From the IMG/VR virus record IMGVR_UViG_3300014832_000004, positions 16,871 through 80,870 of that record: a DNA stretch of 64,000 nt, one strand, 5' to 3'. Positions within the stretch are counted from its first letter, which is position 1. Every line of letters begins with the position of its first letter. The notes beneath the pieces are model-generated. The model saw nothing but the letters and a program-made list of their open reading frames with translations. It ran no database searches and was not told where the DNA came from. Below are positions 1,300 to 22,578 of this stretch, piece after piece. The DNA comes from a virus (Duplodnaviria; Caudoviricetes). A program made the position numbers and the translations under genes.

Positions 1300-1358
1300 C
1301 CTGCGCGTAACAGGCAGGCGGACGCCTATTCTTCGGGCACACATTCGGAGCGATCGGC

Positions 1359-1979
1359 ATGGGATTTTCGGCGTCAAACATCGGCAGCCTGTCGCTGATC
1401 GGCCAGGCCGGCGGCGCGATCACCTCGGCCATCGGCAGCAAATTCGAAGCGGCCAGCAAGAAGTCGTCGCTGAACGCTCAGGCAGGGCTGGCGAACACGT
1501 CGGCGCGCATCGCTGAAACGAATGCGCGAATCGCCGAGCTTGGCGCGCAGACCGCGCTTCAGCAAGGCGAATCACAGGTTGCCAAGCTCACGCTTCAGGC
1601 TGGAAACCTCAAGGCGTCGCAGCGCACCACGATGGCCGCTAACGGAATCGACATCGGGCAAGGCAGCGCTGCCGAGTTGCAGGCTTCGACCGACATCATG
1701 AAAGAGATCGACGCCAACACGTTGACCGCCAACGCTATCCGGCACGCCTTCGGCTACCAAACGCAAGCGACAAATGCCCGGACGCAAGGCGTGAATGCCA
1801 GAAACGCAGCCTTGGCGCAGCAGGCTGCGGCAAGCGGAATATCGCCCGGAATGGCCGGCGCAACTTCGCTTCTCGGCAGCGCAACCAAGGTTGCGGCATC
1901 GTGGTACGGGATGAACAAGGCCGGGGTGTTCGACAAGCCGCCGAAGGTTGATGATGAAGACATCGGGATGAGCTACTGA
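1359..1979 (+). CDS. Internal virion (ejection) protein, small
   Basis: Ala/Gln/Gly-rich 206 aa; position after tail tube B; stop overlaps next start. Confidence 0.65.
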   Translation: MGFSASNIGSLSLIGQAGGAITSAIGSKFEAASKKSSLNAQAGLANTSARIAETNARIAELGAQTALQQGESQVAKLTLQAGNLKASQRTTMAANGIDIGQGSAAELQASTDIMKEIDANTLTANAIRHAFGYQTQATNARTQGVNARNAALAQQAAASGISPGMAGATSLLGSATKVAASWYGMNKAGVFDKPPKVDDEDIGMSY

Positions 1980-7100: not shown

Positions 7101-10100
7101 GCGCGGCGTTTTCGACCGGATGCTGGCAACAACCGAAGACATCAAGCAGGCGGAACAGGCCCGAAGCATGATCAATCTGTTTTCGACGGCAGAACAAGCG
7201 GGCATGAGCCAAGAAGACTTCGCCGCCTATCACGCGCTTGGTACGGATGCGACGAACGTCGCAATCGAGGAACTTCAGGCGCGAGGCATGCGCGACATGC
7301 AATGGATAAAGAATGCTCGCGTCCGCGTGCTGAAGAAGTTGCAACAGGAGTCGAAGGCCAAGCGTGCAGAGGTCAAGATGACTGCCCGCCGTGATGTGAT
7401 GAGCCAGCCTGTATATCGCGCGTGGCAGTTCCTGACGGCCAAGATCGGTGCGGATGATGTGGTCGACGTGGCGGCGAAGCCAAAGAGCGATCCTCGCGAA
7501 CTGAATCCTGAAACCGATTCGCTGTTCAAGGCAATTGCCAAGCTCGGCGGTATCAACAAGGCTGAAGCCGTCAGCACGTGGGGGACCGATCCGGCCGACA
7601 AGCCAACCAGCGGCGTGTTCGGTATGCCGGTGTGGCGCGTCGAAGGCGGACTATCTATCGACGGCATGGCAGAGGCACTTGCACAGCACGGATACCTGAC
7701 GCAAGACGAAAACGGCAGGGTCGACGTGCGCGAGCTGGAACAGTTGTTCGCCGATGAGCTTAGAGGGAGCCCGCAGTATTCCAACGCCGTCGACGCGTCG
7801 TCGATGATGGACCAGCCGCCGAAAGCTGGCGAAGACATGGCCAACCATGGCGGGCTGCGTGCTGGCCGTCTGAACCTCGACGGATTGCGTGACACGTCGC
7901 TATCGAGCGACCAGATAGAGGTCTTGAAGGCCCGCAGGATGACCGCTGCCGGCGGCTTGCACCCGGATGTCGTCGCCGAACTGTTCCCCGAGTTCGGGAG
8001 TGGTGATGCGCTTGTTCAGGCGCTCGTCGCAGCAGTTCCTCCGCTCGAAATGATAGATGCGCTGACCGATCAGCGAATGCTTGAGCAATTCGGCGAACTG
8101 TCTTCGCCGGAAGCAATCGCGCAAGCCGCCGATATGGCGATCCACAATGAAGTCAGGGCCAGGGCCATTGCGACCGAGCTTGCGACGCTCGAAAAGGCGC
8201 TCAATGTGCGCGGGGATGCCGGGAATGATCGGAACGGCAGGAGGCGGACGTTCGCCGTTCTGCCGGCGGCCGCTCGGGAGTTTTCGAATGCGATGATCAG
8301 CCGCCTGAAAATCCGCGACATCAAGCCTGCGCAATACTCCGGATCTGCGGCGCGTGCTGGTCGTGCGGCAGCAAAGGCTGAGAAGTCCGGCGACATCGAA
8401 ACGGCGGCATCGGAGAAGAGGACTCAACTGCTGAACATCTATGCCACCCGTGCGGCGCATGAAGCCATCGAGGAAGCGAGGAAGATCGATGAGTTCTTCC
8501 GCCGGGTAATCGGCGGCAAGGATGCGACGGTAGGGAAGTCTCGCGACATGGATTTGGTGAATGCCGCGCGGGCGGTGCTGGCAGCGTATGGCTACGGCGG
8601 CAAGGCAAAGTCCGCCGTCGCGTATGTGGAGGTCGTTCAGAAGAATGATCCCACATGGATGGCCGACGTGATCCGCAAAGCAGTTGAAGAAGCGGAAGCC
8701 AACGGCAAGCCGATCAAGGATCTGACGCTCGATGAGTTGCGGGCACTGAAGGAAGATGTTGATGCTCTATGGCACTTGGCTGAGCGCAGCCGGACGATGG
8801 AGATCGACGGCGTGCTGATGGACCGAAAGACCGTTGCGGATGCGCTGTTCAGGCGCATGCAAGAGCTTGGGATTACGCAGCATGCCCCAGGAGAATCAAG
8901 CGCAATCACTGACGACGAAATGCGCGCGATGAATTTCTCATCCATCAAGGCCATTCTGCGGCGCGTCGAATCGTGGGTCGATCAGCAGGACGGCGGGGAG
9001 AGGTTCGGGCCGTTCCGGCGATACCTTTGGACACCGATCAAGGATGCCGCTGACGCCTACCGAGCAGCGAAGGCCGAAAGGCTGCGCGCTTTCCGGGATG
9101 CGTTCTTGGCGATCGCTCCGTCCATGACTCGTTGTCTGGTCGCTGCGCCAGAGCTTGGCTACACCTTCGGCAAAGAATCCGGCGGGGTGGCCATGAACGA
9201 GATCCTGCATGCGATCCTGCACACCGGAAACGAAAGCAATAAGCGCAAGCTGTTGGTCGGCAGAGGATGGGCATCCGTATTGCCCGGCGGGGCCATCGAC
9301 ACCGGCCGGTGGGATGCGTTCGTCGCTCGCATGATCGACTCAGGCAAGCTCACAAAGGCGCACTACGACTTTGCCCAGAAGGTTTGGGACCAGATGGAGG
9401 CGATGAAGCCTGCGGCGCAGCAGGCGCACCGAGACGCTACAGGCAAGTACTTCGAAGAGGTTACAGCTACTCCGTTCGTTACTCCGTTTGGCGCCTACCG
9501 TGGAGGCTACGTTCCTGCGATGGTGGACAGCCGAATCGTCAAGGACATGGAGTTGAAAAAGCTGGTCGAAGAAGGGAATGATGGCATGTCCTACGTGTTC
9601 CCGAGCACCAGCAAGGGGTTCACGAAATCGCGCGTCGAATACAACAGACCTTTGTTGCTCGACATGCGATCCTTGCCGCAGCATATCGACAGGGTGCTGC
9701 TCTTCTCGCATCTTGAGGTTCCGATACGCGACGCCGCCCGGCTGATCGGATTCGAACCTGTTGCCGACGCGATTAACCGACGCGATCATGGGGCGATCAC
9801 TGGCATGTTGCGCCCGTGGCTGAACCGCACGGCACGGCAACAGGTAACGACGCCAATAGCCGGCGCCGGATTCATGACGGGAATGGTCAACACGATTCGA
9901 AACCGTACCAGCATGGCATATATGTTCGCCAACGTCAGCAACGCGGCGCAGCAGATCACTGGAGTGCTTCTGGCCGGGCTGAAGGTCAGGCCGTCAAGCC
10001 TTGCGTCTGCCACGGCGCGCTACATCAATGCGCCGCGCGAAACTGCCGCCGAAGTGTCTAGGCTGTCGCCCTACATGGCGCACCGGATGGATGGCGAGGT

Positions 10101-10995
10101 GCATGCGATGCTTGGCGAGATCGAAAGCATCATGATCGATCCGACGCTGTACGAACGGGCTCAGGAATGGACGAAACGGCATTCGTTCTTCCTTCAGCAA
10201 GCGGTTGATAACGTCATGGGGCCGATCATCTGGATGGGGGCATACAACGAGGCGATGGAGGAAAAGTTCAACCCGAAGGATGCAGCCAGGCTGGCAGATT
10301 CTGTCATCCGGCAGACACAAGGAAGCTCGCTGCCGGAGGACATCAGCAGAATCGAATCCGGTCCGGCCTATGCCAGGCTGTTCACGCAGTTCGCCGGCTA
10401 TTTCAACATGCAGGCGAACCTGCTCGGCAGCGAGATCGGGAAGGTAATGCAAGAGGCCGGGCTGAAGAAGGGTGCTGGACGTATGGCTTATATCCTGCTG
10501 CTCGGCTTTTACGCCCCGGCCTTGGTTGCCGAGGCCGTCGCGCAGATGTTCAAGGGAGGCCCTGGCGACGACGACAAGGACGGTGAATACCTGGATGACT
10601 GGCTGATGGCGCTGTTCGTCTATGGCCCGATGCGGAACATTACGGCCATGGTCCCTGTCGTTGGGGCGGCCGCAAACAGTGCCATCGCCCGGTTCAACGG
10701 CAACCCGGTTGATGACCGGATGAGCGTTGCGCCGGCTGTTGGTGCTATGGAAGCCGGCGCAGGCGTGCCGTTCGATCTCTACAAGGCGGTGAAGGGGGAG
10801 GGCGATGCACAGCGCGCGGTGCGCGACGTTTCGACGCTGATCTCCATCGCTACCGGGCTGCCGGCGCATGCCTTGGCCCGCCCGGTTGGATACGTGTCCG
10901 GTGTTGCGCAAGGAAAAACAGATCCCACCGGGGCTATCGATTTCACTCGTGGCGTTGTCACTGGCGCAGCGAGCCCGGAGAGTCGTGGGCGATAA
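4162..10995 (+). CDS. Large polyvalent ejection protein (2277 aa) with ART-like and HExxH domains
   Basis: Size and position; WHGT..GTGEGAQAYGWGWY segment; TFLHESGH motif. Confidence 0.75.
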   Translation: MANPYDDISLTGAAAKPSGNPYDAIPLRDPSDVRGALVSAMNANPDAAGRAARLARQIGSPAAAVEAHLPEVESIVKVDYYAKMIERAPRTEDFLRNPDKARMAHDDVENLSAWESAGQFLKNSGKALASGVPAFNEGFWGVGQAGGEVLSKLTKPLVGIGLPDVGDSAAQFFGDQRKISQAIKQSLMTVPEGNISAGWYSGLQSLTMNMLTLPAAFMSGNPVLSLVPMAATTGGQAYGQARDKGVGVGSSLAFGASQAAIEYATEKLPVAWLLKDIKAGAGFGKMLGRQMLAEVPGEQAATALQDLNEWAVLNPQKPFADYIKERPGAFVQTLVATMVGAGGQVGTIKLADMAIQAAQAKEQQAVEAGKAGQLLAEMNKLAAASKVRERDPETAREFFQSILDDGNDSVWITPDALAQSGMAEQMAQAIPAVAEQLGSASQTGHDIRIPVADLMATMAGPDLAQSILQHVATEPGGFTTTTAEEYMQSGKAEELKAEIDRVLGEKDGDDSFAASSQEVEDAVFAELQSAGRHAESVNRTDAILHRHFFSVMAAKLGEMPKALFDRYAIRVVAKAGGDDGSLDQTAWHGTPHVWEPEPGFPHGRPRLDKMGTGEGAQAYGWGWYSAEADGVANEYAAKLAKPVVLFNGVRAKDLKVSERAKQLAEWIESRSGAMQYGHQGDSARADFARLPQDVKEELGNVDVYDGGTLYKLDIPDDVLPHLLDWDRPLSEQPEVLAALETDPQMGKSSIGWRGAPSGAWERAMGGKSRNGEWLYREITNNDQKAASAALRALGIPGLRYLDGNSRADGKGTYNYVIWDQPTLDRIALLERNGEKLDAIREANILRQSDQSPRGTFSPSKNTIALLKDANLSTFLHESGHFFLEVMADLASQPMAPAAVQQDMHAILDWFGVADMPTWANLEFEERRSYHEKFARGFELYLAEGKAPSIELHGVFQRFRAWLLKVYTSLKSLNVSLTPEVRGVFDRMLATTEDIKQAEQARSMINLFSTAEQAGMSQEDFAAYHALGTDATNVAIEELQARGMRDMQWIKNARVRVLKKLQQESKAKRAEVKMTARRDVMSQPVYRAWQFLTAKIGADDVVDVAAKPKSDPRELNPETDSLFKAIAKLGGINKAEAVSTWGTDPADKPTSGVFGMPVWRVEGGLSIDGMAEALAQHGYLTQDENGRVDVRELEQLFADELRGSPQYSNAVDASSMMDQPPKAGEDMANHGGLRAGRLNLDGLRDTSLSSDQIEVLKARRMTAAGGLHPDVVAELFPEFGSGDALVQALVAAVPPLEMIDALTDQRMLEQFGELSSPEAIAQAADMAIHNEVRARAIATELATLEKALNVRGDAGNDRNGRRRTFAVLPAAAREFSNAMISRLKIRDIKPAQYSGSAARAGRAAAKAEKSGDIETAASEKRTQLLNIYATRAAHEAIEEARKIDEFFRRVIGGKDATVGKSRDMDLVNAARAVLAAYGYGGKAKSAVAYVEVVQKNDPTWMADVIRKAVEEAEANGKPIKDLTLDELRALKEDVDALWHLAERSRTMEIDGVLMDRKTVADALFRRMQELGITQHAPGESSAITDDEMRAMNFSSIKAILRRVESWVDQQDGGERFGPFRRYLWTPIKDAADAYRAAKAERLRAFRDAFLAIAPSMTRCLVAAPELGYTFGKESGGVAMNEILHAILHTGNESNKRKLLVGRGWASVLPGGAIDTGRWDAFVARMIDSGKLTKAHYDFAQKVWDQMEAMKPAAQQAHRDATGKYFEEVTATPFVTPFGAYRGGYVPAMVDSRIVKDMELKKLVEEGNDGMSYVFPSTSKGFTKSRVEYNRPLLLDMRSLPQHIDRVLLFSHLEVPIRDAARLIGFEPVADAINRRDHGAITGMLRPWLNRTARQQVTTPIAGAGFMTGMVNTIRNRTSMAYMFANVSNAAQQITGVLLAGLKVRPSSLASATARYINAPRETAAEVSRLSPYMAHRMDGEVHAMLGEIESIMIDPTLYERAQEWTKRHSFFLQQAVDNVMGPIIWMGAYNEAMEEKFNPKDAARLADSVIRQTQGSSLPEDISRIESGPAYARLFTQFAGYFNMQANLLGSEIGKVMQEAGLKKGAGRMAYILLLGFYAPALVAEAVAQMFKGGPGDDDKDGEYLDDWLMALFVYGPMRNITAMVPVVGAAANSAIARFNGNPVDDRMSVAPAVGAMEAGAGVPFDLYKAVKGEGDAQRAVRDVSTLISIATGLPAHALARPVGYVSGVAQGKTDPTGAIDFTRGVVTGAASPESRGR

Positions 10996-11055
10996 CGCTG
11001 CGCGTATCGCCATGGCAAAACAATACCCTGTCGGCTACTCATCAGGAGGCCGCGC

Positions 11056-13821
11056 ATGACCATTTCAAGCACCAGCCGAAAGGCCGGGCCATATGCCGGG
11101 AACGGTGTCACGGTTTCCTTCCCGTTCTCGTTCAAGGTGTTTTCGACATCTGATCTGCTTGTCACAGAAATCGATTCCGATGACAACGAAGAAACGCTGG
11201 CGCTGACGACGAATTACACGGTCGCGCTGAATGCCGACCAGAATGCAACGCCAGGCGGAACGATCACGCTGCCAGATGCGCTGCCAGTGGGGAACTCGCT
11301 GACGATCCGCACCAACATCCCGATCACGCAAACCATGGACTTGACCAACCAAGGGGGGTTTTACCCGACGGTAATCAACAACGCCATGGACCGGGCGACA
11401 ATCCAGATCCAGCAACTTGCCGAGATCGTCGGGCGATCCCCGGCGGTGTCGATCGGGTCCGGTCTGTCTGGCATCACAATCGAATCGCCAGGAGCCGGGG
11501 AATACCTGCGATGGAACCTTGCCGGCACGGCAATCGAAGCGACGGCCGCCGTCTACGACCTTGGCACGTTCATGCAGTCCGGGACTGGCTCCGTCGAGCG
11601 TTCGGCCATGAGCAAGATGGGCGAGCGTGTCAGCGTCAAGGACTTCGGAGCCGAAGGCAACGGCGTTGCCGACGACAGCGCGGCCTTCGCGCTGCTTGAG
11701 GCGGCGTACCCTGGACACCATGTCGACCTTGATGGGTTCGCCTATTCGGTCGCGGCGATCCCGACTGGCGCCAGGTATCACAACGGTAGTTTCGTCGTCG
11801 GTTCGGTCAAGACGGCGATGCGCGCCAAGCGACTGGACAACCCGATGGACGGGTCATCTCGGGTGGCTATCGGCGACGGGGCCATGCATTATTGGAGCGC
11901 AAGCGCCGTCTACAACCCAGCCGACGGGGTCATGATCGCGTTCCTTGATGCCGGATACAGGCATGACACGTCGGAATCTTCACCTCTGAACATCATGTTC
12001 TCGGAAGATCGCGGGGCATCATGGGTTGGGGAAAAAACGATTTACTCCGTCGACGGATGCGATGTGGCTGATGCAAAGGCTGGGGTCATGGGCAGCGGCA
12101 GGATTGGCGCGCTGGTGTCCATGCGCGGCGGGGCCATCAGCACCTACCGTAACGATTTTGTTTATTCCGACGATGACGGCGCCACATGGGATGCGATTGT
12201 CGGAGTCATTGCCGATGGCAGCGGGTCATTCGTTTACGGCGATATGCTTCCGTATCCAGCGGCGGTCGGCGGGCACGATACGACGGGGTTTGTGGTCTAC
12301 AGCTACACCGGCGGGATCATCTATGCCCTTACCACGATAAACAACGGGGCAACATGGTCGTCTTCAGCAGTTACCTCGTCTGCATCGTACACCGAGGCGT
12401 CCGTTGTCAGGGTCAACAACGAGAACAAGTGGCTGATGTTCATCCGCACAGGAGCCAACCTGTTTGTTTCCACGTCGGTGAACATGACGACATGGACAAC
12501 TCCGGTTGACTCCGGTATCGCGATCCTGTCAAACCCGGTCTACGCGTATATAACCGGCGGGCGGCTTTTCGTCTACGTCTTCTTGCGTGATTTCGCCCCA
12601 ACTGCGCTTGGTGTCGAGAATGAAATCATCCTGTTCGAAGACGATCCGGCTGCCGTTTATGCCGCTAGCGACCTTGTAAGCAAGGCATATCGCGTAGTTG
12701 TTGATGGCGTCGACCGCGCATTGGGGTACCTGAAAATCATGCCGGTCGGCAATGATCACGTTTGGATTTACACCGCTGGCGAATACGATGGATCGACGCT
12801 ATTTCCAGCGGCCACATCAATCGTTACAGGATCGACTAGGCGATCTCCTGGAGTCGGGAAAACATATGCCGATGCCCTGGCGTCAAACACGAATATTGTC
12901 CGAAACGGGACGTTCGATTTCTGGTCAAGGGGGACCAGTTTCACAGGGTTCACGGCGAACACGAACACGGCAGACGGATGGAAATTTCAGCCGTCCGGGG
13001 CCACTGTCACCGTTACGCAACGCGCCCTGACGCCCGCAGAATCTCTGCTATTTCCTTTTCATCCGCAGTTCGGCATGGAAATATCAGCCACGGCTGACAA
13101 CTCATCAGCGCTTGTTCAGCAGTGGTTCGGCACGTCGGAAATGACCATGATTGCCGACTCCTATGTATCCATCCAGGTTTGGGGAATAGGCGACGTGCCA
13201 AGCGCCGGGCTGCGCGCAGGCATCCAGTTCGATTATGGCGGCGGCGGCAGCGCGCTTGCCCAAACTGCCGCGCTCATGGAGTTTGCCGAAAGCGCGGATA
13301 ACGTTTGGAAAACTACCGCAGTTCTTCGCGCTCCAACGATGGTAGGGAAAACCATCGGGACAGATCCGAAGACGATATTTGTGCTTGGGAATTCGTCTGA
13401 GACAGAGGCTTGGGACGCAACGATCGTTGGCGTCAAATACGAGCTATCAAGCGCTCCGTCGCGTTTCCGTCCTATCGACTTGAGCGCCGAAAAGATGCGC
13501 TGCCAGAGGTATGTGCAAGCCATTCCATACGACTCAATCGATGCGGTTGGCGTGGCCTGTGCCGCTTCAACAGTTGCCGCATTCGCGACAATCGAATACC
13601 CGGCGATGGTTTCCGCTCCGTCTGTGTCGCTTCTGTCAGGCGCGGCTGGATCGTTCGAGGTCTACCCTCTCGGGTCGACGATTACAGCCGTGTCAGCGAG
13701 CAGTGTTGGCGTCAAGGCTACGGCAATTTCGATCACCACTACCGGCATGACGGCCGGTGACAGCTACCTCTTCAGGACCAAGGCGGCGTCCCCGGTAGTT
13801 TTCCTGCTGGACGCCGAGTAA
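11056..13821 (+). CDS. Tail spike/fibre with endosialidase-like N-extension and Asp-box (BNR) propeller
   Basis: T7-like N-terminal anchor; VKDFGAEGNGVADDSAAF; Asp-boxes SEDRGASW, SDDDGATW, TINNGATW. Confidence 0.75.
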   Translation: MTISSTSRKAGPYAGNGVTVSFPFSFKVFSTSDLLVTEIDSDDNEETLALTTNYTVALNADQNATPGGTITLPDALPVGNSLTIRTNIPITQTMDLTNQGGFYPTVINNAMDRATIQIQQLAEIVGRSPAVSIGSGLSGITIESPGAGEYLRWNLAGTAIEATAAVYDLGTFMQSGTGSVERSAMSKMGERVSVKDFGAEGNGVADDSAAFALLEAAYPGHHVDLDGFAYSVAAIPTGARYHNGSFVVGSVKTAMRAKRLDNPMDGSSRVAIGDGAMHYWSASAVYNPADGVMIAFLDAGYRHDTSESSPLNIMFSEDRGASWVGEKTIYSVDGCDVADAKAGVMGSGRIGALVSMRGGAISTYRNDFVYSDDDGATWDAIVGVIADGSGSFVYGDMLPYPAAVGGHDTTGFVVYSYTGGIIYALTTINNGATWSSSAVTSSASYTEASVVRVNNENKWLMFIRTGANLFVSTSVNMTTWTTPVDSGIAILSNPVYAYITGGRLFVYVFLRDFAPTALGVENEIILFEDDPAAVYAASDLVSKAYRVVVDGVDRALGYLKIMPVGNDHVWIYTAGEYDGSTLFPAATSIVTGSTRRSPGVGKTYADALASNTNIVRNGTFDFWSRGTSFTGFTANTNTADGWKFQPSGATVTVTQRALTPAESLLFPFHPQFGMEISATADNSSALVQQWFGTSEMTMIADSYVSIQVWGIGDVPSAGLRAGIQFDYGGGGSALAQTAALMEFAESADNVWKTTAVLRAPTMVGKTIGTDPKTIFVLGNSSETEAWDATIVGVKYELSSAPSRFRPIDLSAEKMRCQRYVQAIPYDSIDAVGVACAASTVAAFATIEYPAMVSAPSVSLLSGAAGSFEVYPLGSTITAVSASSVGVKATAISITTTGMTAGDSYLFRTKAASPVVFLLDAE

Positions 13822-14284: not shown

Positions 14285-14442
14285 TGGCGTGCGTGACTCG
14301 TTGGCATTGACGCAGTTGTCAGAATTTTTAGTGAACGCGCACATGCTCTAGCTTCCTGTTTCTGTTCGAAATCCAGCCGCGTAGGCACATGCATACAGAA
14401 TAATGACGCAAAGCTCTGCGTCAAATAGGATTGCTACATCAC

Positions 14443-14449
14443 GTTATAC
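14443..14449 (+). repeat. Leading R-type core box GTTATAC (attI-like or decayed attC)
   Basis: Exact complement of R'' GTATAAC of attC1 at 15214. Confidence 0.6.
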
Positions 14450-14453
14450 GTCT

Positions 14454-15197
14454 TCATGCGGTCAGTACCATTTGCACGGCCTGCCGCTCCCAATGTTGCA
14501 AACTCTGTTGCGCTTCAATCCGTTCGCGCATCACCAACGCACGAACGTCTTTTCCCTTCGGGGGGTATGTTCCGCGCCAGGCCGAATCAATGCCTATGTT
14601 CTGAGCAATATTCGTGCTGTCTGCGCTACTCAGCGGCAACCGCGTAAAAACCTCTGGATTAAGCATCCGAAGGCCATGCAGTTTCGTGATCGGCAGTCCA
14701 TCTTTTCCCGTCACAGCGTTCATGGCTTCGGCCATTCGGTTCCACCATTTGTCTGTTCCAACAGTGGCAAACTCTCCGCTGCTACCGAGGCATATCCGAG
14801 GCCAAGCATGTGCAAGCCTTTGTAGGCGTCCAATTGATTCGTGCATGTGCCAAACGGGTGCGCCAATGTGGGCATGTCTTGCCTTCCAAGGCCATTCGGA
14901 AACGAGGGCATCATTTGCTTGTTCATCGCCATCAATCACGTCCGGTATTACTGCAAAGTCAAACGATGGGGCGCGACAAATCTCATCAACCCATGCGTAG
15001 TAGCCGCCCCAATCCGTTATTGGTTGTCCGCTTTTCCATGCCGAGAAAGCGCCGTTGTCCACTGCAAAACTCTGGCAAATCTCAAGGGCCAAGCCGAGTT
15101 GGTCGGCGTACCGGAAGGAAACAAAGGCGTGCCCACCCCCAACGGCCGCGCAAGCTGCTGTCGCAGGCGTTATTGGTAGTCCGTGGTAATGAATCAT
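14454..15197 (-). CDS. TGT/DpdA-like (queuine tRNA-ribosyltransferase fold) protein, cassette A
   Basis: VDNGAF, IPDV, LHGLR, SADS motifs in TGT order; SD GGAGAGGA before ATG 15197. Confidence 0.65.
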   Translation of the reverse strand: MIHYHGLPITPATAACAAVGGGHAFVSFRYADQLGLALEICQSFAVDNGAFSAWKSGQPITDWGGYYAWVDEICRAPSFDFAVIPDVIDGDEQANDALVSEWPWKARHAHIGAPVWHMHESIGRLQRLAHAWPRICLGSSGEFATVGTDKWWNRMAEAMNAVTGKDGLPITKLHGLRMLNPEVFTRLPLSSADSTNIAQNIGIDSAWRGTYPPKGKDVRALVMRERIEAQQSLQHWERQAVQMVLTA

Positions 15198-15213
15198 TTC
15201 CTCTCCAAAATAC

Positions 15214-15276
15214 GTATAACCCATCGCTCCAGCGGGACGCGGCTAATCGCCGCGCCCCTGAGCTAGTGCGTTATGC
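15214..15276 (+). repeat. attC site 1 (63 bp)
   Basis: GTATAAC-CCATC-GCTCCAGC-(CGCGGC hairpin)-CCTGAGC-TAGTGC-GTTATGC; canonical 5 nt/8 nt/7 nt/6 nt layout. Confidence 0.9.
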
Positions 15277-15555
15277 CGCAGCAAAATTACTCATCACTAC
15301 GCCAGCCTCGCCTTCTGCCAGCAGTTCGGTGCAGGTTGAATACTTCGCGTCCTTCCACGGCTGGTTTGTGTCCGCCGTTTTGGTTGAAAGGAACTCGCCT
15401 AGGTTTTCATCGCCAGCTTCAGCGTGTGCGAGTGCGCGGGCCTCGTCTTCCGTTTCGGCGCGCACCACAAAGCCGAACGATTTGTCGTACCACGGTTCCC
15501 ACGGGTTGTCTTTCTTGTCCAACCCCTCCACGGGGCGCAGTATCCAAAGTTTCAT
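15271..15555 (-). CDS. Hypothetical protein, cassette B (94 aa)
   Basis: SD upstream; TAA stop coincides with the TTA of attC1 R'. Confidence 0.75.
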   Translation of the reverse strand: MKLWILRPVEGLDKKDNPWEPWYDKSFGFVVRAETEDEARALAHAEAGDENLGEFLSTKTADTNQPWKDAKYSTCTELLAEGEAGVVMSNFAAA

Positions 15556-15582
15556 TTCTTCTCCTTTCTCGCCGCCGCAGCG

Positions 15583-15651
15583 GCATAACCCTGCGTTCCA
15601 GCGGAGGCTGCGCCATGAAGCGGCGCATCCCCGCTGAACTCCACGTTAGGC
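15583..15651 (+). repeat. attC site 2 (69 bp)
   Basis: GCATAAC-CCTGC-GTTCCAGC-...-GCTGAAC-TCCAC-GTTAGGC. Confidence 0.9.
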
Positions 15652-16011
15652 AACGTGAGGCCCGCCGTGCTTTGCAATCGCCTCGTGCACGATCCGGCAT
15701 ACCTCTGGCATCTCACCGGCCAGCGAATACACGGCGCGCAGCGCCTCCACCAGTGCAATTACGTCGTCGCACTTGTCAGCCCACATGCCTTCACACACAC
15801 TGCGCGCATAGTGGTCGTTCTGGCACTCGGCGTCGTGCGGCTGGCGAAACACCGGAAACGCGCCCTCTGCGTCGCTGTCGCACAGGACAATTCGAGTCGG
15901 CCTCTCGTGCTTCGTCACATAGCGGCACCAAGCCACATGCGCGCTTGGAGCACGTTCCCTAACTATCGCTTCGAGCGGACCCGCAACAGCGGGCGCCGTT
16001 GTCTCACTCAT
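15646..16011 (-). CDS. Hypothetical protein, cassette C (121 aa)
   Basis: GGAG SD and ATG lie inside the attC3 loop; stop in attC2 R'. Confidence 0.65.
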   Translation of the reverse strand: MSETTAPAVAGPLEAIVRERAPSAHVAWCRYVTKHERPTRIVLCDSDAEGAFPVFRQPHDAECQNDHYARSVCEGMWADKCDDVIALVEALRAVYSLAGEMPEVCRIVHEAIAKHGGPHVA

Positions 16012-16058
16012 GGTCGTCTCCTGCCCGCTGTTGCGGGCCGTTCAAGCTAGCGTTCGGC
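15957..16058 (+). repeat. attC site 3 (102 bp)
   Basis: CCCTAAC-TATCG-CTTCGAGC-GGACCCGCAACAGCGGGC...GCCCGCTGTTGCGGGCC-GTTCAAG-CTAGC-GTTCGGC. Confidence 0.85.
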
Positions 16059-16354
16059 CCCATCCTTGCCAGGGCCACTCTTGCCGTCCAAGCGTCGCCG
16101 TTGTCTGTCCAGCTTGCGGCCATCGCCTCGCAGCACTTCTCGCACCAGCGATAGTTCCGCATGGCACCGTCAAAGGTCGCAGCCAGTGTTCTTACGCGCT
16201 CGCCTGGCTGAATCTCTTGCAGGCACATGCCGCAGGTTCCACCCTTTCGCGCCGTGACAATCTTGTCCTTCAGCACCTTGTCGCCTGGGCGGCCAAAGTC
16301 GCCCTCGAAAGGGTTGCATTTGAGGCAGTCGGTTTCTTGCGTCTCGGTCATCAT
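16004..16354 (-). CDS. Cys-rich phage hypothetical protein, cassette D
   Basis: VTARK..CxxC..IQPGE...CxxC pattern; similar to 57196-57471. Confidence 0.7.
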   Translation of the reverse strand: MMTETQETDCLKCNPFEGDFGRPGDKVLKDKIVTARKGGTCGMCLQEIQPGERVRTLAATFDGAMRNYRWCEKCCEAMAASWTDNGDAWTARVALARMGPNASLNGPQQRAGDDHE

Positions 16355-16593
16355 TCACCTCCTGGGGCCGAACCATGCGCTCGAAGGGATCTGCGCGATA
16401 AGGCGTGCGCAGCCCGGACACGATATTGAAGCGTGATCGGGAAGTCCCACTCGTTCAGTTCTGGTTCGATCTCGCGCAGGAGCAGTTCAAACGCCTCGCG
16501 CTTGCGGCGCTCAAGATCCAGATCGTCATTTAGCCGAACAATCTCCGCCACGCACTCTCCGTGCTGGTCTCCGTCTGGTTATTCGTCAAACAT
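16351..16593 (-). pseudogene. Accessory gene with in-frame TAA at codon 5
   Basis: MFDE*PDGDQHGECVAEI versus MSFDEQPDGDPHGECAAEI at 57157; SD AAGGA upstream. Confidence 0.65.
16367..16441 (+). repeat. attC site 4, right half degenerate
   Basis: GCCGAAC-CATGC-GCTCGAAG plus TGCGC hairpin; R'' complements attC3 R'; no intact GTT box. Confidence 0.6.
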
Positions 16594-16665
16594 CGTTTTT
16601 CCTTTTGTAGTTGAAATAATCGACACCATTTTGTTGGCGCCGCCTAAATGGTTTCCTTCTGGTCA

Positions 16666-17022
16666 TCAAATCACCCCCACAATTCCAGGGTTGAACGGGC
16701 TGTCAAAACTCTCGGCACGTCTGTTGCACGGAACGCATCGCCGGTTGTTGGCGCTCGACGATCCGAACTCATGGCCGCACATCAGGCACCGTCGAACAGC
16801 CGGGCCGCGAGCAATATCGGACGCTGACCTTGACTCTAAGTTGCCCGTCGACGATGCCGCCGACAATGCGCGAAGCTCGCGGACGCGCGACGCCACCTGC
16901 GTGCCTCGCAGGCCAATCATCTCGCCGACTTGATTGTTTGTCATGCCGGCCTCTCGCAACTCAAGAACCCTGGCGTCCATTCCTGGAGTCCATCGCATCG
17001 CGCCCGGTCTGTGAGTGCTCAT
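16666..17022 (-). CDS. GcrA/Myb-like HTH protein with C-terminal Zn finger
   Basis: RWT..MDARVLEL..G...Q.G..IG; CLMC..CVPC. Confidence 0.6.
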   Translation of the reverse strand: MSTHRPGAMRWTPGMDARVLELREAGMTNNQVGEMIGLRGTQVASRVRELRALSAASSTGNLESRSASDIARGPAVRRCLMCGHEFGSSSANNRRCVPCNRRAESFDSPFNPGIVGVI

Positions 17023-17197
17023 GTACTGAGCCGCTGTCGTCTGTTTTCTTAAGACGACCAAAGCACGATGACAGATCCCTACCTAGACGCCTTGCTATCT
17101 CCGATAGCTGAACGCCTTCGCACTTCAGGCGCCACAGATCTGCGTGCTCGTCGGCGGTCCATTGGCGGCGGCCGGTAGTGACCCTTGTCTTTTTCAT
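16961..17197 (-). CDS. Myb/GcrA-like HTH protein
   Basis: QWTADEHADLWRL..EG..LSEIARRLGR. Confidence 0.6.
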   Translation of the reverse strand: MKKTRVTTGRRQWTADEHADLWRLKCEGVQLSEIARRLGRDLSSCFGRLKKTDDSGSVHEHSQTGRDAMDSRNGRQGS

Positions 17198-17553
17198 CGC
17201 ATCACGTGCACGGTGACTACACCATTGCTGTAGGCGGTGCCGTGTGCTGTCTTTCTGGATTCTCCGGCAGGGGTTGCCTGGATGCGCATGGCGATAGCCG
17301 TGTCCTTTGCCGACATGGCCAGCCTGCGCTGCGCCGCGGCTCGCTTGTCGGCAGATAGTCTGGCCATTGTCTTGGCCTTCTCAGCCTCTTTGTACGTATC
17401 CGACTTGTAGAGCTTTCTCCCCTTGGCGTAGTTCGAGACTTGGTCTGTGGTCAGACCCATTTCGGCTGCCAGTACTTTCGTGCTGGTGTTCGGGTAGCGC
17501 AGGCGAAGCAAGGCATCTTCTGCTTTCGTCAGGAATCGAGGTTCAGCTTGCAT
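17194..17553 (-). CDS. HTH-type DNA-binding protein (paralog of 58733-59092)
   Basis: EDALLRLRYPNTST..LAAEMG. Confidence 0.65.
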   Translation of the reverse strand: MQAEPRFLTKAEDALLRLRYPNTSTKVLAAEMGLTTDQVSNYAKGRKLYKSDTYKEAEKAKTMARLSADKRAAAQRRLAMSAKDTAIAMRIQATPAGESRKTAHGTAYSNGVVTVHVMR

Positions 17554-18433
17554 TTTCAAGCTCCGCTAACAAGTCGCCGGTCATCCGGAGAGCGTTCTCA
17601 AGATTTCGAACTGCCTGTTGGTAGTAGCTTGACTTCAGCTCGATGCCGACGAACTTCCTCCCCATCTGCACCGCCACATGCCCTTCGCTCCCGATTCCTG
17701 CGAACGGGGACAGAACGACATCGCCAGGGTTGGTCCATAGCTCGATGCCGCGCCTGATGACCTCAAGCTGCAGCGGGCAGATGTGCCTCTCGTCGGCATG
17801 CTCGCGAGCAGACTGATACTGCAGCGTGTCTGATGGGTTGATGTCCATCCATACAGGGCTTGCGATCTTCTGCCAGTAGCTCACCGGGTAGTTGTCTGGC
17901 GTATGCGTCACGCGCTCATCTTGCTGGCCTGGTGCGCGCACGGTGATCAGGTAGTCCGGCAGACCTTGCCGGCACATCGACGCATTATCGCGCACCGACT
18001 TGTGCAGCAGCCCGATGGCCTTGGTGCGCTGCATCTGAGTGACAGGATCTTTCCAGATGACCACTTCGGAGTGGAAGATAAACCCTTGTGCCTGAAACGC
18101 TCGGATCATGTCGCCTCGGAAATCTTTCAGACCGACGTAGCCGTCCCGTTCCTTGCTCGCAGGGAACTGCATGCAGTGGAACGAAACGTTCCGGCCGGGT
18201 TTCATGACGCGCAGCAGCTCACGGACCATGAACCCGAAGTGCTCGAAAAATTCTTCTGTCGTTCGGCAGTTGCCCATGTCTCTAGGGCTGTTGCTGTACG
18301 TGTACAGGCTGGCGAATGGCGGGCTGAAGATGCTGTAATCAATCGATCTGGCCGGCAGCCCGGCGAGCGTCTCGACGCAATCGCCGTTGATGATGGTCCA
18401 TCCTTCGCCGGATGCTTGGTCAATGCAGTTCAT
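17543..18433 (-). CDS. Amino (N4-C/N6-A) DNA methyltransferase, beta class
   Basis: NGDC, SPPF catalytic motif, HICPLQL, VLSPFAGIGS motif I. Confidence 0.9.
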   Translation of the reverse strand: MNCIDQASGEGWTIINGDCVETLAGLPARSIDYSIFSPPFASLYTYSNSPRDMGNCRTTEEFFEHFGFMVRELLRVMKPGRNVSFHCMQFPASKERDGYVGLKDFRGDMIRAFQAQGFIFHSEVVIWKDPVTQMQRTKAIGLLHKSVRDNASMCRQGLPDYLITVRAPGQQDERVTHTPDNYPVSYWQKIASPVWMDINPSDTLQYQSAREHADERHICPLQLEVIRRGIELWTNPGDVVLSPFAGIGSEGHVAVQMGRKFVGIELKSSYYQQAVRNLENALRMTGDLLAELENAS

Positions 18434-18649
18434 GCGATTTTCTCCATTGGATGCTGTTGAAGGCGCGCCGCACGCAATAGCTGCGGGCGATGCTGATTGC
18501 CGTGTAAATTGCGCCAATCGCCATGTTGTCGGACAGGCTTATGGCGATGCCGAAGGCCGGCATTATCGCCGCGTTGGCAATAAGCGATACTAACCGATCG
18601 CCACATTTGCCGCCGACTCAACGGCGCTCTGTGTTCTGGTCTGGCTCAT
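18420..18649 (-). pseudogene. Small 2-TM phage membrane protein with a 1-nt frameshift
   Basis: MSQTRTQSAVESAANVAIG stops at 18590; adjacent frame continues LVSLIANAAIMPAFG..SIARSYCVRRAFN; ATGA overlap with helicase stop. Confidence 0.6.
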
Positions 18650-20025
18650 GCTGATGTCGCCAAGAATGCAGGGATGGATACGCGATTGCCGGCGGCGTAC
18701 TCGTTTGTGTTCTTGCGCGCTCCAAGAACCGAATCACGGACGGCGGCAAGTGTTTCAGAAGCCATCTTGGCTGCCATGTCCTGCGCCGCATCCTGCTTGC
18801 GCTTGATGTTGGCGACGACGGATCCATCCTGGTTGCTGGCGAATACATGGATATGAACCGGGCGCTTTTGGCCGAATCGCCATGATCGGCGGATGGCCTG
18901 GTAGAAGCCCTCGTAGCTGTCGTTGACGCCGACGAATGCTTGATTGGCGCAGTGCTGGAAATTCAGCCCCCATCCGCAGATCTTCTGCTTGCTGATGAGG
19001 ACGCGATGTTGTCCAGCCGAGAACCCGACCATTCTCGCCTCCTTGATGTCGTTATCGTCGGAGCCGGCTACTTGCACAGACCCTGGAATTGCTTTTTCGA
19101 GCATGTCGCCTTCGTCGTTAAGGTCACACCAGACGATCCACGGGGCGCTGTCTGAATTGACCAGATCTGCGCACGCCTTGACACGCTGCGCCATGCTGTC
19201 GCGCCTTGCCTGCCGGCGCTCGGTGAGCGTCTGTGCTTCCATGGCGAACAAGCCATGCGCAGAGTTGTGCTCGATTTCGACCGTGTGCTGATGGATATTG
19301 AGCGGCGGGAGGTCGTAGGCTCTGGCGTCGTAGCCAAGATCCGCCGGGCTGCGAATCATGGCTCCCCACGATGCAACCCACCGCCAGAACACTTGCCTGG
19401 CATGGCCCTTCAGCCGCCAAACGCTTGTATCCCCGCCGTCGTGGACGAAGAATTCGGCCAGCATTTCAGCACGGCTGCGCACCCCGAGGAATTCCGCATG
19501 CGTTCCCAACTCCGTCCAGTCGTTCGGGCTCGGCGTCGCCGTGCAGCAGAGCTTGTACGGCGTGTGTCGGAATGCGGCTATGAGCAGCGCCAGCGTGCGG
19601 CTGGCGTGCGATTTGATGATGCTCGACTCGTCAAGAGCAACGCCTGAGAACTGCGACATATTGAACCTGTGCATGCGGTCGTAGTTGGTAATGTTGATGC
19701 CGGCCACCACGTCTTGAGCTTCGCGGCAGTGCGTTACTTTGGTTCCCATAATCCGGGCCTCTGAAACGAACTGCTGAGCGACGGCCAGCGGACACAGGAT
19801 GATGACCGGCCTACCTGAGTGCGCCGTGACGGCATCTGCCCACGCGATGGCCATGCGCATCTTGCCCAGCCCGGTGTCGGCAAAAATTGCGGCTCGACCG
19901 CGGCGCAGAGCCCATGCGGTTAGGTCCCGCTGGTGCGGGAACAAATCGTAACCGCGCAATGGCGTGTCAATGCCAGCGGACGCGACGACGCCGATCTTGT
20001 TTCGGATGAACTTGGAGTAGGTCAT
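18646..20025 (-). CDS. SNF2-like SF2 helicase
   Basis: ADTGLGK, LDESS, CTATP, GLNFQ, QAIRRSWRFGQ. Confidence 0.88.
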   Translation of the reverse strand: MTYSKFIRNKIGVVASAGIDTPLRGYDLFPHQRDLTAWALRRGRAAIFADTGLGKMRMAIAWADAVTAHSGRPVIILCPLAVAQQFVSEARIMGTKVTHCREAQDVVAGINITNYDRMHRFNMSQFSGVALDESSIIKSHASRTLALLIAAFRHTPYKLCCTATPSPNDWTELGTHAEFLGVRSRAEMLAEFFVHDGGDTSVWRLKGHARQVFWRWVASWGAMIRSPADLGYDARAYDLPPLNIHQHTVEIEHNSAHGLFAMEAQTLTERRQARRDSMAQRVKACADLVNSDSAPWIVWCDLNDEGDMLEKAIPGSVQVAGSDDNDIKEARMVGFSAGQHRVLISKQKICGWGLNFQHCANQAFVGVNDSYEGFYQAIRRSWRFGQKRPVHIHVFASNQDGSVVANIKRKQDAAQDMAAKMASETLAAVRDSVLGARKNTNEYAAGNRVSIPAFLATSA

Positions 20026-21749
20026 GCCTGGTGGTTCCGTATCACGCCGTTTTCGATCCAGAACGCACCGACGGTATCCGGCAACTTGGTCGGCACCGCC
20101 TTGAGGGTGGCGAACAGCAGTGCGGTTTCGATCTCGCCATCTTCGGCAAGGCCATCAAGCCAGAACAGGATGTCTTCGCGGCCGGTCACGTCGAGCACAT
20201 CCATGCGGTCAAGGACCAGCAGCTTGACGCCTGATATGTGGCTGATCGCTTCGGCAATCATCGCGTCTGCGCGCCACTTCTCTGACTCTGACAGTAGGTT
20301 GTAGGGCCGGCCGCCTCCGGTTATGGTCATGTCAGCATCGATGTCGACGCGCAGCCACTCGGTCATGTGCGACGACGACGCCAGTCGCTGGTTGATCGGT
20401 CCAAGCGCATCGGCGAGCATCTCGCCAGGTATCCCATTCGGCGCCAGGGCATCGGCTACCGCCTCCCACTTGGTGACGTCGACGTGATAGGCGCGGGCGG
20501 TGTCAGTGCGGCTGTCGGCAAGCAGCGCTGTTCGCTCGTCGTCTTCAAGCGTCTTGATGGCTTCCTTCAGCGCCACGCGCGACTTCTTCGCCTCGTCGAC
20601 CTTCGCCCGGGCGGCGGCGATTTCCTCGGTCGTTGGCGCCGGGGCGGATTTCTGGTCGTCGATCTCGGCCAGGGCTTTTGCTGCTGCGTCGGCGTCTGCC
20701 AGGTCGCGCTTGTCGTTCGCGACCGATCTGGCGAGCAAGTCGCGAGCACTCTGATACTCGGCGAGCTTTCCGGGATCGGCCGGGGAGTCGACGACTGGCG
20801 GCGGCGTGAATTCGATCAGCGCGCCGTTGGCGTGGTCGTGCCGCAGCAGAGCGGAGCATGCCGGGCATTTGTAGGTTGGCTCGGTCGGAAGCTGCTTGCC
20901 TCCCTTGCTCATCTCGGCGTCGACTTTGTCCTGCAACTCCTTCAGTGCCGACTCGTCATGGCGCAGCTTGGCCTCGATGCGGGCGAACTTGCCGGCGCTC
21001 TCGCGAAGCCCTGACAGCCGCGCGCCTTGATCTGCCTGCGCCTTGGCCCGGCCCTGCATGTCGCCGATCTGGCGCACGCCGTCTTCGATCTTCTGCGCCA
21101 GCGTATCAACCTCGGCTCGGCGGGCCTTCAGATTCTCGGGATTGAATCCTGGCTTCGGCGCCACCCATGACGAGGCCTTGACGCTGCCGTAGGTTTCTCC
21201 GGTGACAGTGCGCCATGAGGCCTTGTTGTCACGTGCCTTGGCCTGCGCCTCCTTGTGCGCGGCGTCGAAGCCGGCCCGCAGGTGCGGGGAGATCATCTTG
21301 ACCATCTCATGGTCGCAGCCCTTGTCGAGCAGGCGTTGCGTGACGGCGTCTCCGTCTGTGCGCAGGCCCATCAGGCCGAAGAGGAACGTGCGGCGCTCGT
21401 TGGCCGGAAGGCTGCTAAAGCGCTGTGCGTCGAGGACGTAGGGCAGGATGGCCGGCGGTCGCTCGTCGGTGTGTTCGTGGGCGCCGTTCGGCACGGTGAT
21501 AGCGCTGCGGCCCCTGTCGTGATCGACCACGACATAGCCAACGGTCTGGCCTTCGGTGATGAGGGCCGGGTAATCCTTCTTCATGCTGACGCGCGACGCA
21601 TCGCCGGTGAGCGCCATGCGAACCGCTTCGGCGATACTGCTCTTGCCGCTGTGGTTGCGCCCACAGATGAGCGTGACAGGTCGCGTCAGGCGGATGTCGA
21701 CGTCGACGGCGCCGATGAAATTCTTGGCTTGGATGGCGGTGATTTTCAT
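20022..21749 (-). CDS. Rad50/SbcC-like ABC ATPase
   Basis: Walker A GRNHSGKS, CPAC hook, LLSESE signature, LVLDRMD Walker B. Confidence 0.8.
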   Translation of the reverse strand: MKITAIQAKNFIGAVDVDIRLTRPVTLICGRNHSGKSSIAEAVRMALTGDASRVSMKKDYPALITEGQTVGYVVVDHDRGRSAITVPNGAHEHTDERPPAILPYVLDAQRFSSLPANERRTFLFGLMGLRTDGDAVTQRLLDKGCDHEMVKMISPHLRAGFDAAHKEAQAKARDNKASWRTVTGETYGSVKASSWVAPKPGFNPENLKARRAEVDTLAQKIEDGVRQIGDMQGRAKAQADQGARLSGLRESAGKFARIEAKLRHDESALKELQDKVDAEMSKGGKQLPTEPTYKCPACSALLRHDHANGALIEFTPPPVVDSPADPGKLAEYQSARDLLARSVANDKRDLADADAAAKALAEIDDQKSAPAPTTEEIAAARAKVDEAKKSRVALKEAIKTLEDDERTALLADSRTDTARAYHVDVTKWEAVADALAPNGIPGEMLADALGPINQRLASSSHMTEWLRVDIDADMTITGGGRPYNLLSESEKWRADAMIAEAISHISGVKLLVLDRMDVLDVTGREDILFWLDGLAEDGEIETALLFATLKAVPTKLPDTVGAFWIENGVIRNHQA

Positions 21750-22578
21750 GGCGTCATGTCCTTGATGGCGAAATAGACGGCCATGCACGCCTTCACATCA
21801 GCCATGGCGCTGTGCGCGTTTTCCAGTTCAAGGCCAGTGAAGTGGCTGTAGGCTTCGGTCAGGTTGGCCGTCTTGTGGTGCGTTCTGCCGACCGCCAGCA
21901 TGCGTTCAGTCGGAGGAAGCTTGCAGATCGGAGTTGCGAGCCTGGCTGTGCATTCGGCTTTCCCGGCTTTCCACTCGTCAGCCGCCAGGTCGCCGTAGCG
22001 CATCATGGCGATGCGGACAATTCGGGCGTCGAAGCTCTCGTTGTGGCCCACGCGCAGGTTGACGCCGCGCCACATTTCCAGGAACGCGCTCAGGGCGATG
22101 TCTTCCGGTATTCCGATATCGCCGGCCATCTCGGTGGTGATGCCGTGGATGGCAGATACCTCATCGGGGATCGTCCAGCCGTTCGGGCGAATCATCAGGT
22201 CCAGGCTCGACAGCACCTGGCGCGTTTCAGCGTCGACGACAGCTGCGGCGATCTGCACGATGTGCGGCTGGTGCGCCGCTTCCGATGGAGCTTTGAAATC
22301 CGGCAGGCCGGTCGTCTCGGTGTCGTAGAACAGAATGGGGTTCATGGCGGTTACTCGATGCCCATGCCGCCGCGCTCGCGGCGCTGTCGGGCGGGAGTCG
22401 CGCTCTGCATCGCTTCCTGCCTTTCAGCGGCGCGGATCGCGGCTTCTTCTTCGGGGTCTGGGCGCCAGTCGCCGGCCGGCGCGGCTTTCTTGATTTCCTG
22501 CGGCACGGTCTGCGGTTGCTTCTGATCGAGCTGCGGCGCGTCGTGGATTTCGCCGGGGTCCTGGTCGACGGTCTGTGG
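21708..22578. repeat. ~870 bp direct repeat, copy 1 (copy 2 at 61071-61941)
   Basis: Identical translated exonuclease; matches at both ends and spot checks; first mismatch seen at 22475/61838. Confidence 0.92.
21746..22345 (-). CDS. DEDDh 3'-5' exonuclease (DnaQ-like)
   Basis: FYDTETTG, GHNESFD, AHSAMADV. Confidence 0.9.
   Translation of the reverse strand: MNPILFYDTETTGLPDFKAPSEAAHQPHIVQIAAAVVDAETRQVLSSLDLMIRPNGWTIPDEVSAIHGITTEMAGDIGIPEDIALSAFLEMWRGVNLRVGHNESFDARIVRIAMMRYGDLAADEWKAGKAECTARLATPICKLPPTERMLAVGRTHHKTANLTEAYSHFTGLELENAHSAMADVKACMAVYFAIKDMTP

Follow-up and report, generated by a model that had tools for sequence, protein, structure and literature searches.

The window analysed here is a 64,000-nt stretch of virus DNA, bases 16871–80870 of the 80,870-bp IMG/VR virus record IMGVR_UViG_3300014832_000004, from a phage of bioreactor sludge and wastewater. 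This phage has a leftward operon on the − strand that ends, at its 3' side, in an array of four integron-type gene cassettes with three complete attC recombination sites and one truncated site (Table 1). The four cassette genes all lie on the − strand, antisense to the top strand of the attC sites, and the record holds no gene for an integron integrase (IntI). In our judgement this is very probably a cassette array that resides in the phage genome, is moved by an integron integrase acting in trans, has a gene polarity that mirrors the bacterial one and carries phage-type cargo.

Table 1. Features of the cassette array and its borders (window coordinates; R1 and R2 are the covariance models described in the text; ORF, open reading frame; aa, amino acids)
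Feature	Position	Strand	Description
attC site 1	15214–15276	+	R'' GTATAAC 15214–15220, R' GTTATGC from 15270; R1 46.6 bits, R2 51.7 bits
attC site 2	15583–15651	+	R'' GCATAAC 15583–15589, R' GTTAGGC from 15645; R1 40.3 bits, R2 51.9 bits; opposite strand 8 bits
attC site 3	15957–16058	+	102 nt, long variable loop; R'' CCCTAAC 15957–15963, R' GTTCGGC from 16052; R1 28.8 bits, R2 34.7 bits; fold z-score −5.3
Cassette 1	14444–15270	+	DpdA-like gene (antisense ORF 14454–15197) and its own attC; phrog_887, E 1e-68
Cassette 2	15271–15645	+	94-aa gene (antisense ORF 15271–15555) and attC site 2; codon score; phrog_5444
Cassette 3	15646–16052	+	121-aa gene (antisense ORF 15646–16011)
Cassette 4	16053–16400	+	116-aa gene (antisense ORF 16004–16354) and truncated attC at 16367; phrog_19515, E 1e-16
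Backbone side of the array's first junction	14415–14443	+	Constant, ends at G14443; four different terminal cassettes joined there
Terminator-like hairpin	14404–14423	−	8-bp stem, T-rich tail TTATTCTGTA; lies just past the last cassette, downstream as transcription runs
66-aa ORF	16351–16551	−	Last ~30 codons overprint the attC remnant; array grades into phage backbone

Structure and recognition of the attC sites

The three complete sites fall inside 850 bp, with no intI gene nearby, and share one order on the + strand: R'', a 5-nt spacer, L'', a stem-loop, L', a spacer and R'. At each of them, inverted core sites of the form RYYYAAC (R'') and GTTRRRY (R') surround an imperfect palindrome with L'' and L'. 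Extrahelical bases on the R''/L'' arm define the recombinogenic bottom strand of an attC, and folding placed an extrahelical C and an extrahelical A on this arm, the 5' arm of the + strand, at all three sites. The attC of aadA1 from In2 of plasmid R100 carries identical bulges, also on this arm; its sequence was confirmed at 100% identity and lies on the coding strand of aadA1.

The sites were scored with two covariance models: R1, made from 19 attC sites of other viral contigs and including no window sequence, and R2, which follows the principle of IntegronFinder and was made from 89 attCs adjoining intI in 21 bacterial genomes. All three sites pass both models. With R1 their E values range from 2e-11 to 4e-6 on the + strand, the − strand scores at most 8 bits, and the gap between strands is more than 30 bits. 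Beyond these three sites R1 gave no further match in the 64-kb window, and R2 gave none in the whole 80.9-kb record. The functional aadA1 attC, which is matched by R2 too, scores 54.4 bits with R1, and the three window sites are on a par with it. As a control, 665 kb of attC-free prophage loci with DpdA homologs yielded one truncated R1 match. A fast scanner based on regular expressions and pairing gave many false positives below a score of 22, and also 26 sites at or above 22 in the control DNA; its use was confined to arrays of same-strand neighbours, cross-checked by the covariance models.

The regions 15214–15276, 15583–15651 and 15957–16058 are canonical attC sites, as an earlier sequence-only reading of the locus had proposed. 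That reading had also called the fourth site truncated, and rightly so: from 16367 it consists of a 5' half with R'' GCCGAAC, a spacer and L''. The idea that site 4 might be a complete attC of unusual form was rejected, there being no model or fold in its favour.

Hairpins of this kind might be generic terminators or repetitive extragenic palindromic (REP)-like elements, or the array might be bacterial integron DNA misjoined to a phage contig, and the record is indeed composite, with two related phage genomes in one 80.9-kb contig. We give such explanations hardly any credence. The strand difference of more than 30 bits in the attC models and the extrahelical bases on one arm speak against generic palindromes, and the 665 kb of related prophage DNA is without such sites. 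The misjoining of contigs is contradicted by phage genes on both sides of the array on one contig and by the same junctions in independent assemblies, including a contig of 79.9 kb.

A further observation of the sequence-only reading, that each R'' pairs better with the preceding R' than with its own, proved real and is seen in other phage arrays too. Around the four window genes the flanking R'/R'' pairs match at 7/7, 7/7, 6/7 and 7/7 positions, and the pairs within a site at only 6/7, 6/7 and 5/7. Across 62 cassettes on 13 viral contigs, the flanking pairs are perfect in 53/62, compared with 12/75 for pairs within a site and 13% for random pairs. This chain complementarity is the specific trace of circular intermediates.

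Cassette exchange among related phages

A DNA search of deposited phage genomes with the array region gave no match, and for the flanking 131-aa gene no relatives were found in IMG/VR; the comparison of synteny was therefore built on exact-protein look-ups, through which relatives of the phage were gathered from the assemblies of several studies. Five contigs (L277, L278, L286, L288 and L291) match the window at 99.9–100%. Gene tables made L286 and L288 appear to be variants without DpdA, a reading that we rejected, as both are 100% identical to the window and the gene caller had missed DpdA.

Four other relatives (L285, L287, L290 and L292) have a backbone 98.6–100% identical to that of the window and keep its 116-aa and 121-aa cassettes, and differ from it between 15645|15646 and 14443|14444. 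L285 is 99.7% identical to the window down to 16626, has an unlike stretch in place of 16354–16625, and is 100% identical over 16353–15643; after this point come 981 bp of other cassettes, which include two attCs, and from 14446 onward the contig again follows the window, at 98.6% identity across 5 kb of tail genes. L287, L290 and L292 follow the same pattern, each with other cassettes, and L287 and L292 have a different structural module.

The position of the exchange can be read to the nucleotide. On the gene-sense strand, the relatives are identical to the window through GCCTAAC, and diverge right after GCCTAA|C. At the far side, four cassette ends (…GTATAAC, …GGCCTAAC, …GCACAAC and …GGCCAAC) are all joined to the identical backbone GTGATGTAGCAATCC…, and the four terminal cassettes (window, L285, L290 and L292) meet the backbone precisely at the step AA|C, corresponding to G|TT at 14443|14444. 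Variation is concentrated between this backbone junction and the 121-aa cassette, as expected if the junction is the point of cassette entry. In four sister phages the first cassette differs from one to the next and the junction does not, which resembles an attI site; between the left flank of the window and the region around attI in the phage integron G218 (see below), similarity is zero. The junction at 14443|14444 appears to behave as an attI-like or attG-like insertion point.

In the relative L290, from an NCBI metagenome assembly, the backbone junction region is present twice, at 6839–6937 and 7296–7355 (96% and 85% identical to window positions ~14347–14460), and a 113-aa ORF separates the copies.

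Individual cassettes also occur in unrelated surroundings. The DpdA cassette was found at 99.5–100% identity in at least five other contexts. It occurs in L279–L282, with different neighbours on both sides, and in sequencing runs X14 and X15, with unlike flanks; the breaks always fall at the crossover, at 14442/3 and 15273–85. The contigs of X15 come from an RNA library, which does not show transcription of the cassette. In two distant phages (L001 and L003) in which DpdA is 83% identical, divergence sets in exactly outside both crossover points, and the attC 5' of the DpdA gene travels with the gene, as it does in the family of the 116-aa gene. Contigs from independent wastewater runs of 2022–2025 hold 14443–15273, 15267/8 onward or 15644–16056, each with unlike flanks: the match begins at 15267/8 after unlike sequence in runs X6 and X10, and 15644–16056 is flanked by unlike sequence on both sides in X14. 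Coverage in the runs fell on the cassettes and hardly or not at all on the phage backbone, from which no conclusion is drawn. The limits that had been predicted for the first three cassettes from the sequence agree with these homology breakpoints to within 0–4 nt (15 nt once). Junction alignments, contig breakpoints and chain complementarity concur in placing the crossover at G|TT, with cassettes exchanged as units.

Differences of this kind could have another origin, in which the array is now an inert fossil and homologous recombination through the conserved attC arms, without any integrase, has generated the variants. One attC is truncated both here and in relatives, attC arms of the same type share 15–25 nt of similarity, and phages are mosaics, as the different structural module of L287 and L292 illustrates. 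We consider this explanation improbable. The breakpoints lie at the same AA|C step in every comparison, and this includes the backbone junction, which offers no homology of attC arms for recombination; the R'/R'' chain, with 53 perfect pairs in 62, is not accounted for, and the three sites score as well as a functional one. The precise exchange at G|TT and the presence of identical cassettes in other contexts argue instead that the cassettes are moved by an IntI in trans, most likely supplied by the host.

Source of the integrase

The sequence-only reading had seen no integrase near the array, and this absence extends to the full 80.9-kb record, which has zero matches to IntI (TIGR02249) and zero to tyrosine recombinases (PF00589). 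Other phage arrays are alike: IntI is absent from 37 of 39 array-bearing viral records, nine of which are at least 90% complete according to CheckV and three of which have terminal repeats, and from five further array-bearing records, one of them 93% complete, so that 42 of the 44 other array-bearing viral records are without it. One complete small phage genome (L156 of record G212; 35.9 kb, direct terminal repeats, CheckV 100%) is also without IntI, and at least 17 attC-bounded cassettes take up about 5 kb of it.

We propose that an integron integrase for which the phage has no gene performs excision and insertion. It would use each attC as a folded bottom strand and cut at G|TT; cassettes would be gained and lost mainly at G14443|T14444, a junction resembling attI or a secondary 'attG' site. 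A search for host intI found IntI in 88 of the 201 genomes searched from the candidate host order (87 of 200 without the unpublished genome G036). This is the order of a Gallionellaceae metagenome-assembled genome (MAG) that bins a related DpdA/attC contig and carries IntI; the attCs of its IntI-linked integron are of the same subtype as window site 1. From these data we infer that the chromosomal integron of a betaproteobacterial host is the most likely source of the enzyme. In such bacteria the chromosomal intI is typically SOS-induced. The earlier proposal that the phage borrows a host IntI in trans is thus supported as regards borrowing, in view of cassette mobility at G|TT and of a record without IntI, and the host is the probable lender, given the distribution of IntI.

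The enzyme might alternatively come from another phage with a complete integron, during co-infection or from a resident prophage. In this community, a complete integron with inverted cassette polarity is borne by a temperate phage contig, G218, with its twin G214 (apparently one element). Phage genes (tail genes, the reverse transcriptase of a diversity-generating retroelement at 6617–7615, a phage integrase, and single-stranded-DNA-binding and ParB-like genes) are followed by a full-length intI (L275 15559–16590, 479 bits), an attI region and eight attCs that point away from it (array L275 17443 to L276 779), with ORFs for a C5 methylase and a DHH phosphoesterase co-directional with intI. IntI occurs, however, in only two of the 39 array-bearing viral records, apparently in the same element, and is far commoner in bacterial genomes of the candidate host order (88/201). 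In addition, G218 is unrelated to the window phage except for one methylase, and the part of it beyond the phage integrase could be host DNA. A phage source is therefore possible but less likely than the host, and overall we regard it as unlikely.

Polarity of the cassette genes

The sequence-only reading is silent on the antisense orientation of the genes of the array. The locus departs from a complete integron in two respects, having no adjacent intI and no ORFs on the attC top strand, the arrangement that allows expression from the cassette promoter Pc. Longest-ORF orientation is unreliable in DNA of 60% GC, and ORF strand was therefore decided by a codon-usage score. Of the 35 supported ORFs on contigs that were retrieved by way of cassette proteins, 34 are antisense, as are 46 of 49 on 80 contigs found by the attC motif only; with duplicates removed, the viral contigs hold 70 unique antisense cassette ORFs and at most 4 sense ones. 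The same pipeline applied to 13 intI-adjoining bacterial arrays from the candidate host order gave the reverse, 39 sense and 2 antisense (viral versus bacterial, Fisher p = 1e-23). In 20 IntI-linked arrays, R1 reports every one of the 128 sites on the canonical strand, directed away from intI. The coding strand is ambiguous in the single attC-to-attC interval of the Gallionellaceae contig L103.

Because the junction analysis independently ties each attC to its gene, faulty strand calling does not explain the inverted polarity. Phage arrays have mirror polarity as a rule, and, the genes being antisense to the attC top strand, each has its own attC upstream. A 33.7-kb viral contig (L147) has two attC arrays on opposite strands, at 218–2163 (+) and 8640–12928 (−), each with antisense ORFs.

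The antisense genes are read in the direction of the phage operon, and are probably transcribed from it. As to the advantage of this orientation, we infer that mirror polarity may keep the phage pool functionally separate from the Pc-dependent bacterial pool. We are inclined, somewhat more than evenly, to accept the wider proposal that the phages of IntI-rich bacteria maintain a mirror-polarity cassette pool of their own, with attI-like points in their backbones and IntI acting in trans. Were this true, phage cassettes would be silent when captured by a bacterial integron, and bacterial cassettes, defence systems included, would be silent when captured by a phage array; one recombinase would serve two functionally insulated gene pools, of which the phage pool would be a fast-swapping anti-restriction and counter-defence kit.

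A number of considerations weigh against the interpretation as a whole. The attC at the far end of the array is truncated and a terminator-like hairpin lies upstream, at 16621–16642, which leaves read-through transcription unproven. The constant backbone junction could be the fossil of a single old insertion, with later change due to attC × attC recombination and homologous recombination between phages. The action of IntI on these sites is a prediction and the host of the phage a candidate, the link to the Gallionellaceae MAG depends on metagenomic binning, and some IMG/VR contigs may include host DNA. ORF polarity, lastly, derives from a codon-usage score rather than from annotated proteins, although many of the ORFs have PHROG matches.

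Transcription of the array deserves particular attention. The upstream hairpin, with a T-rich tail on the − strand, stands between a helix-turn-helix gene (16666–17061) and the array, so the cassettes may need read-through or another promoter; a scan for sigma-70 promoters found none to drive them.

Cassette genes and cargo

Genes and recombination sites are closely interwoven in the array. The TAA stop codon of the 94-aa gene in cassette 2 sits inside the R' core, where stop codons are often found, and the start codon and ribosome-binding site of the 121-aa gene in cassette 3 are in the loop of attC site 3. The 116-aa ORF crosses the 16052|16053 junction and ends within attC site 3. In its homologs in L048–L053 the attC lies on the 5' side of the ORF, and is truncated in L051 and L052 too. 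On the upstream side of this gene family (L049 5990–6004, L048 and L050–L053), the gene strand shows GGAGG at the attC spacer, and the complement of R'', GTTAGAT, continues into ATG, which indicates that the attC doubles as ribosome-binding site and start codon; the ribosome-binding and start part is all that is left of the attC in L051 and L052.

Searches of Pfam and NCBIfam assigned none of the four cassette proteins to a family above the curated cut-off, the 116-aa protein alone giving a weak match, to DUF7576. The sequence-only reading had judged the cargo to be of phage rather than resistance type, which is consistent with the PHROG matches of three cassettes (Table 1) and with the occurrence of homologs of the window cassettes as ordinary genes in attC-free phages. 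The closest homolog of the 94-aa protein (L121, 78%) likewise lies within an attC array. A single-protein DpdA scan of bacterial genomes gave no match; an alignment-based scan did find homologs there, and in attC-free prophages of Cupriavidus, Janthinobacterium and others the DpdA homolog is an ordinary operon gene. In a Janthinobacterium prophage (L061 5337–8729), the order of helicase, methylase and DpdA is that of the window, without attC sites, a layout that is likely to be the cassette-free ancestral form of the operon end.

Among 75 phage cassette ORFs the recognisable cargo comprises DNA methylases, Mom-like, DpdA, PAPS (3'-phosphoadenosine-5'-phosphosulfate)-reductase-like, HNH, DHH, radical SAM and NADAR proteins, and most of the ORFs belong to no known family. 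The 75 proteins have zero homologs in 23 bacterial integron stretches adjoining intI, a small sample that gives only a hint. Together with the mirror polarity, this census supports the suggestion, also made earlier, of a cassette pool adapted to phages. The cargo of the phage arrays is most plausibly a swappable anti-restriction and counter-defence kit, in which DpdA-type 7-deazaguanine modification of DNA would be the component present here, and methylases, Mom and others the components elsewhere. In 'DpdA-only' phages, a DpdA-like transglycosylase reportedly stands alone, genes for preQ0 synthesis being absent from its vicinity. The window phage is similar in its solitary DpdA, which presumably modifies phage DNA with a 7-deazaguanine precursor made by the host, and differs in that its DpdA is a mobile integron cassette. 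In L279 (973–2010), a 345-aa gene comes after the DpdA cassette; it has a faint AcrVA2-like match in Pfam.

Relation to known systems

Integrons are regarded as an adaptation device of bacteria, and recent work indicates that their cassettes store anti-phage defences. At this locus, phages appear to use the recombination chemistry of integrons for accessory genes of their own, and the exchange is both recent and precise between near-identical wastewater phages.

The sedentary chromosomal integrons of Betaproteobacteria resemble the array in attC architecture and subtype, in crossover at G|TT and in chain complementarity. The array differs from them in that it lies in a phage, without intI, a recognisable attI or Pc, and has its ORFs on the opposite strand.

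That an integron-type cassette array exists in this phage is confirmed by the observations above, and the kind of element is known: clusters of attC sites in phages have already been published, and ours is not the first. According to Qi et al. 2023 (Front Microbiol, PMC9892861), there are 17 attC site clusters without an integron integrase (CALINs) in 21 isolated or deposited phages, and IntI1 recombines phage-borne attCs in vivo in an attC × attI1 assay. As here, those clusters are without intI and their cassettes are orphan DNA methylases and other phage-type genes. Gene polarity, a constant backbone insertion point and the replacement of cassettes between sister phages are not mentioned in the passages searched (PMC9892861). 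The present arrays are widespread in IMG/VR, where one attC subtype was seen on at least 118 contigs, and antisense orientation is uniform among their genes. The literature that we searched contains no report of mirror polarity, of a reused backbone junction or of cassettes replaced from one sister phage to another.

Loot et al. (bioRxiv 10.1101/2022.09.11.507474) describe the insertion of cassettes by IntI outside att sites, at a short double-stranded GTT-containing site termed attG, which leaves isolated cassettes or small arrays (SALINs, single attC sites lacking integron integrases) with no integrase nearby. The left junction of the window (backbone G|TTATAC) is of exactly the attG form. 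It differs in that the recipient is a phage genome and that this non-attC junction carries four alternative cassettes in sister phages, and it looks like an attI-like point that has been reused repeatedly rather than a one-off insertion.

Several consequences follow from such arrays. CALINs need not be just the remains of decayed integrons but can be active arrays, and the locus offers natural material for studying the choice of strands and secondary sites by IntI. The gene polarity mirrors the bacterial rule; if this is general, there would be a second, phage-side cassette pool rich in DNA-modification genes, and the strand of the attC relative to that of the gene would be a simple signature for separating the two pools in metagenomes.

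The phage backbone and the composite record

PHROG matches identify structural genes on the + strand of the window, including an endolysin-like protein, a 2277-aa protein and a tail fibre at 11056–13821. The leftward operon on the − strand contains RecE/RecT-like genes, an SbcC-like gene, a helicase gene (18646–20025) and a DNA methylase gene (17543–18517).

The 80.9-kb record combines two related phage genomes, with paralogous SbcC-like, methylase and helicase genes that are 66–81% identical. The second genome leaves the array unaffected, and may represent one phage nested inside another or a product of chimeric assembly. Within the window the duplication is visible as a diverged repeat pair (20047–22578 and 59413–61941) and as two inverted pairs (17568–18435 with 29930–29063, and 18703–19994 with 29011–27720).

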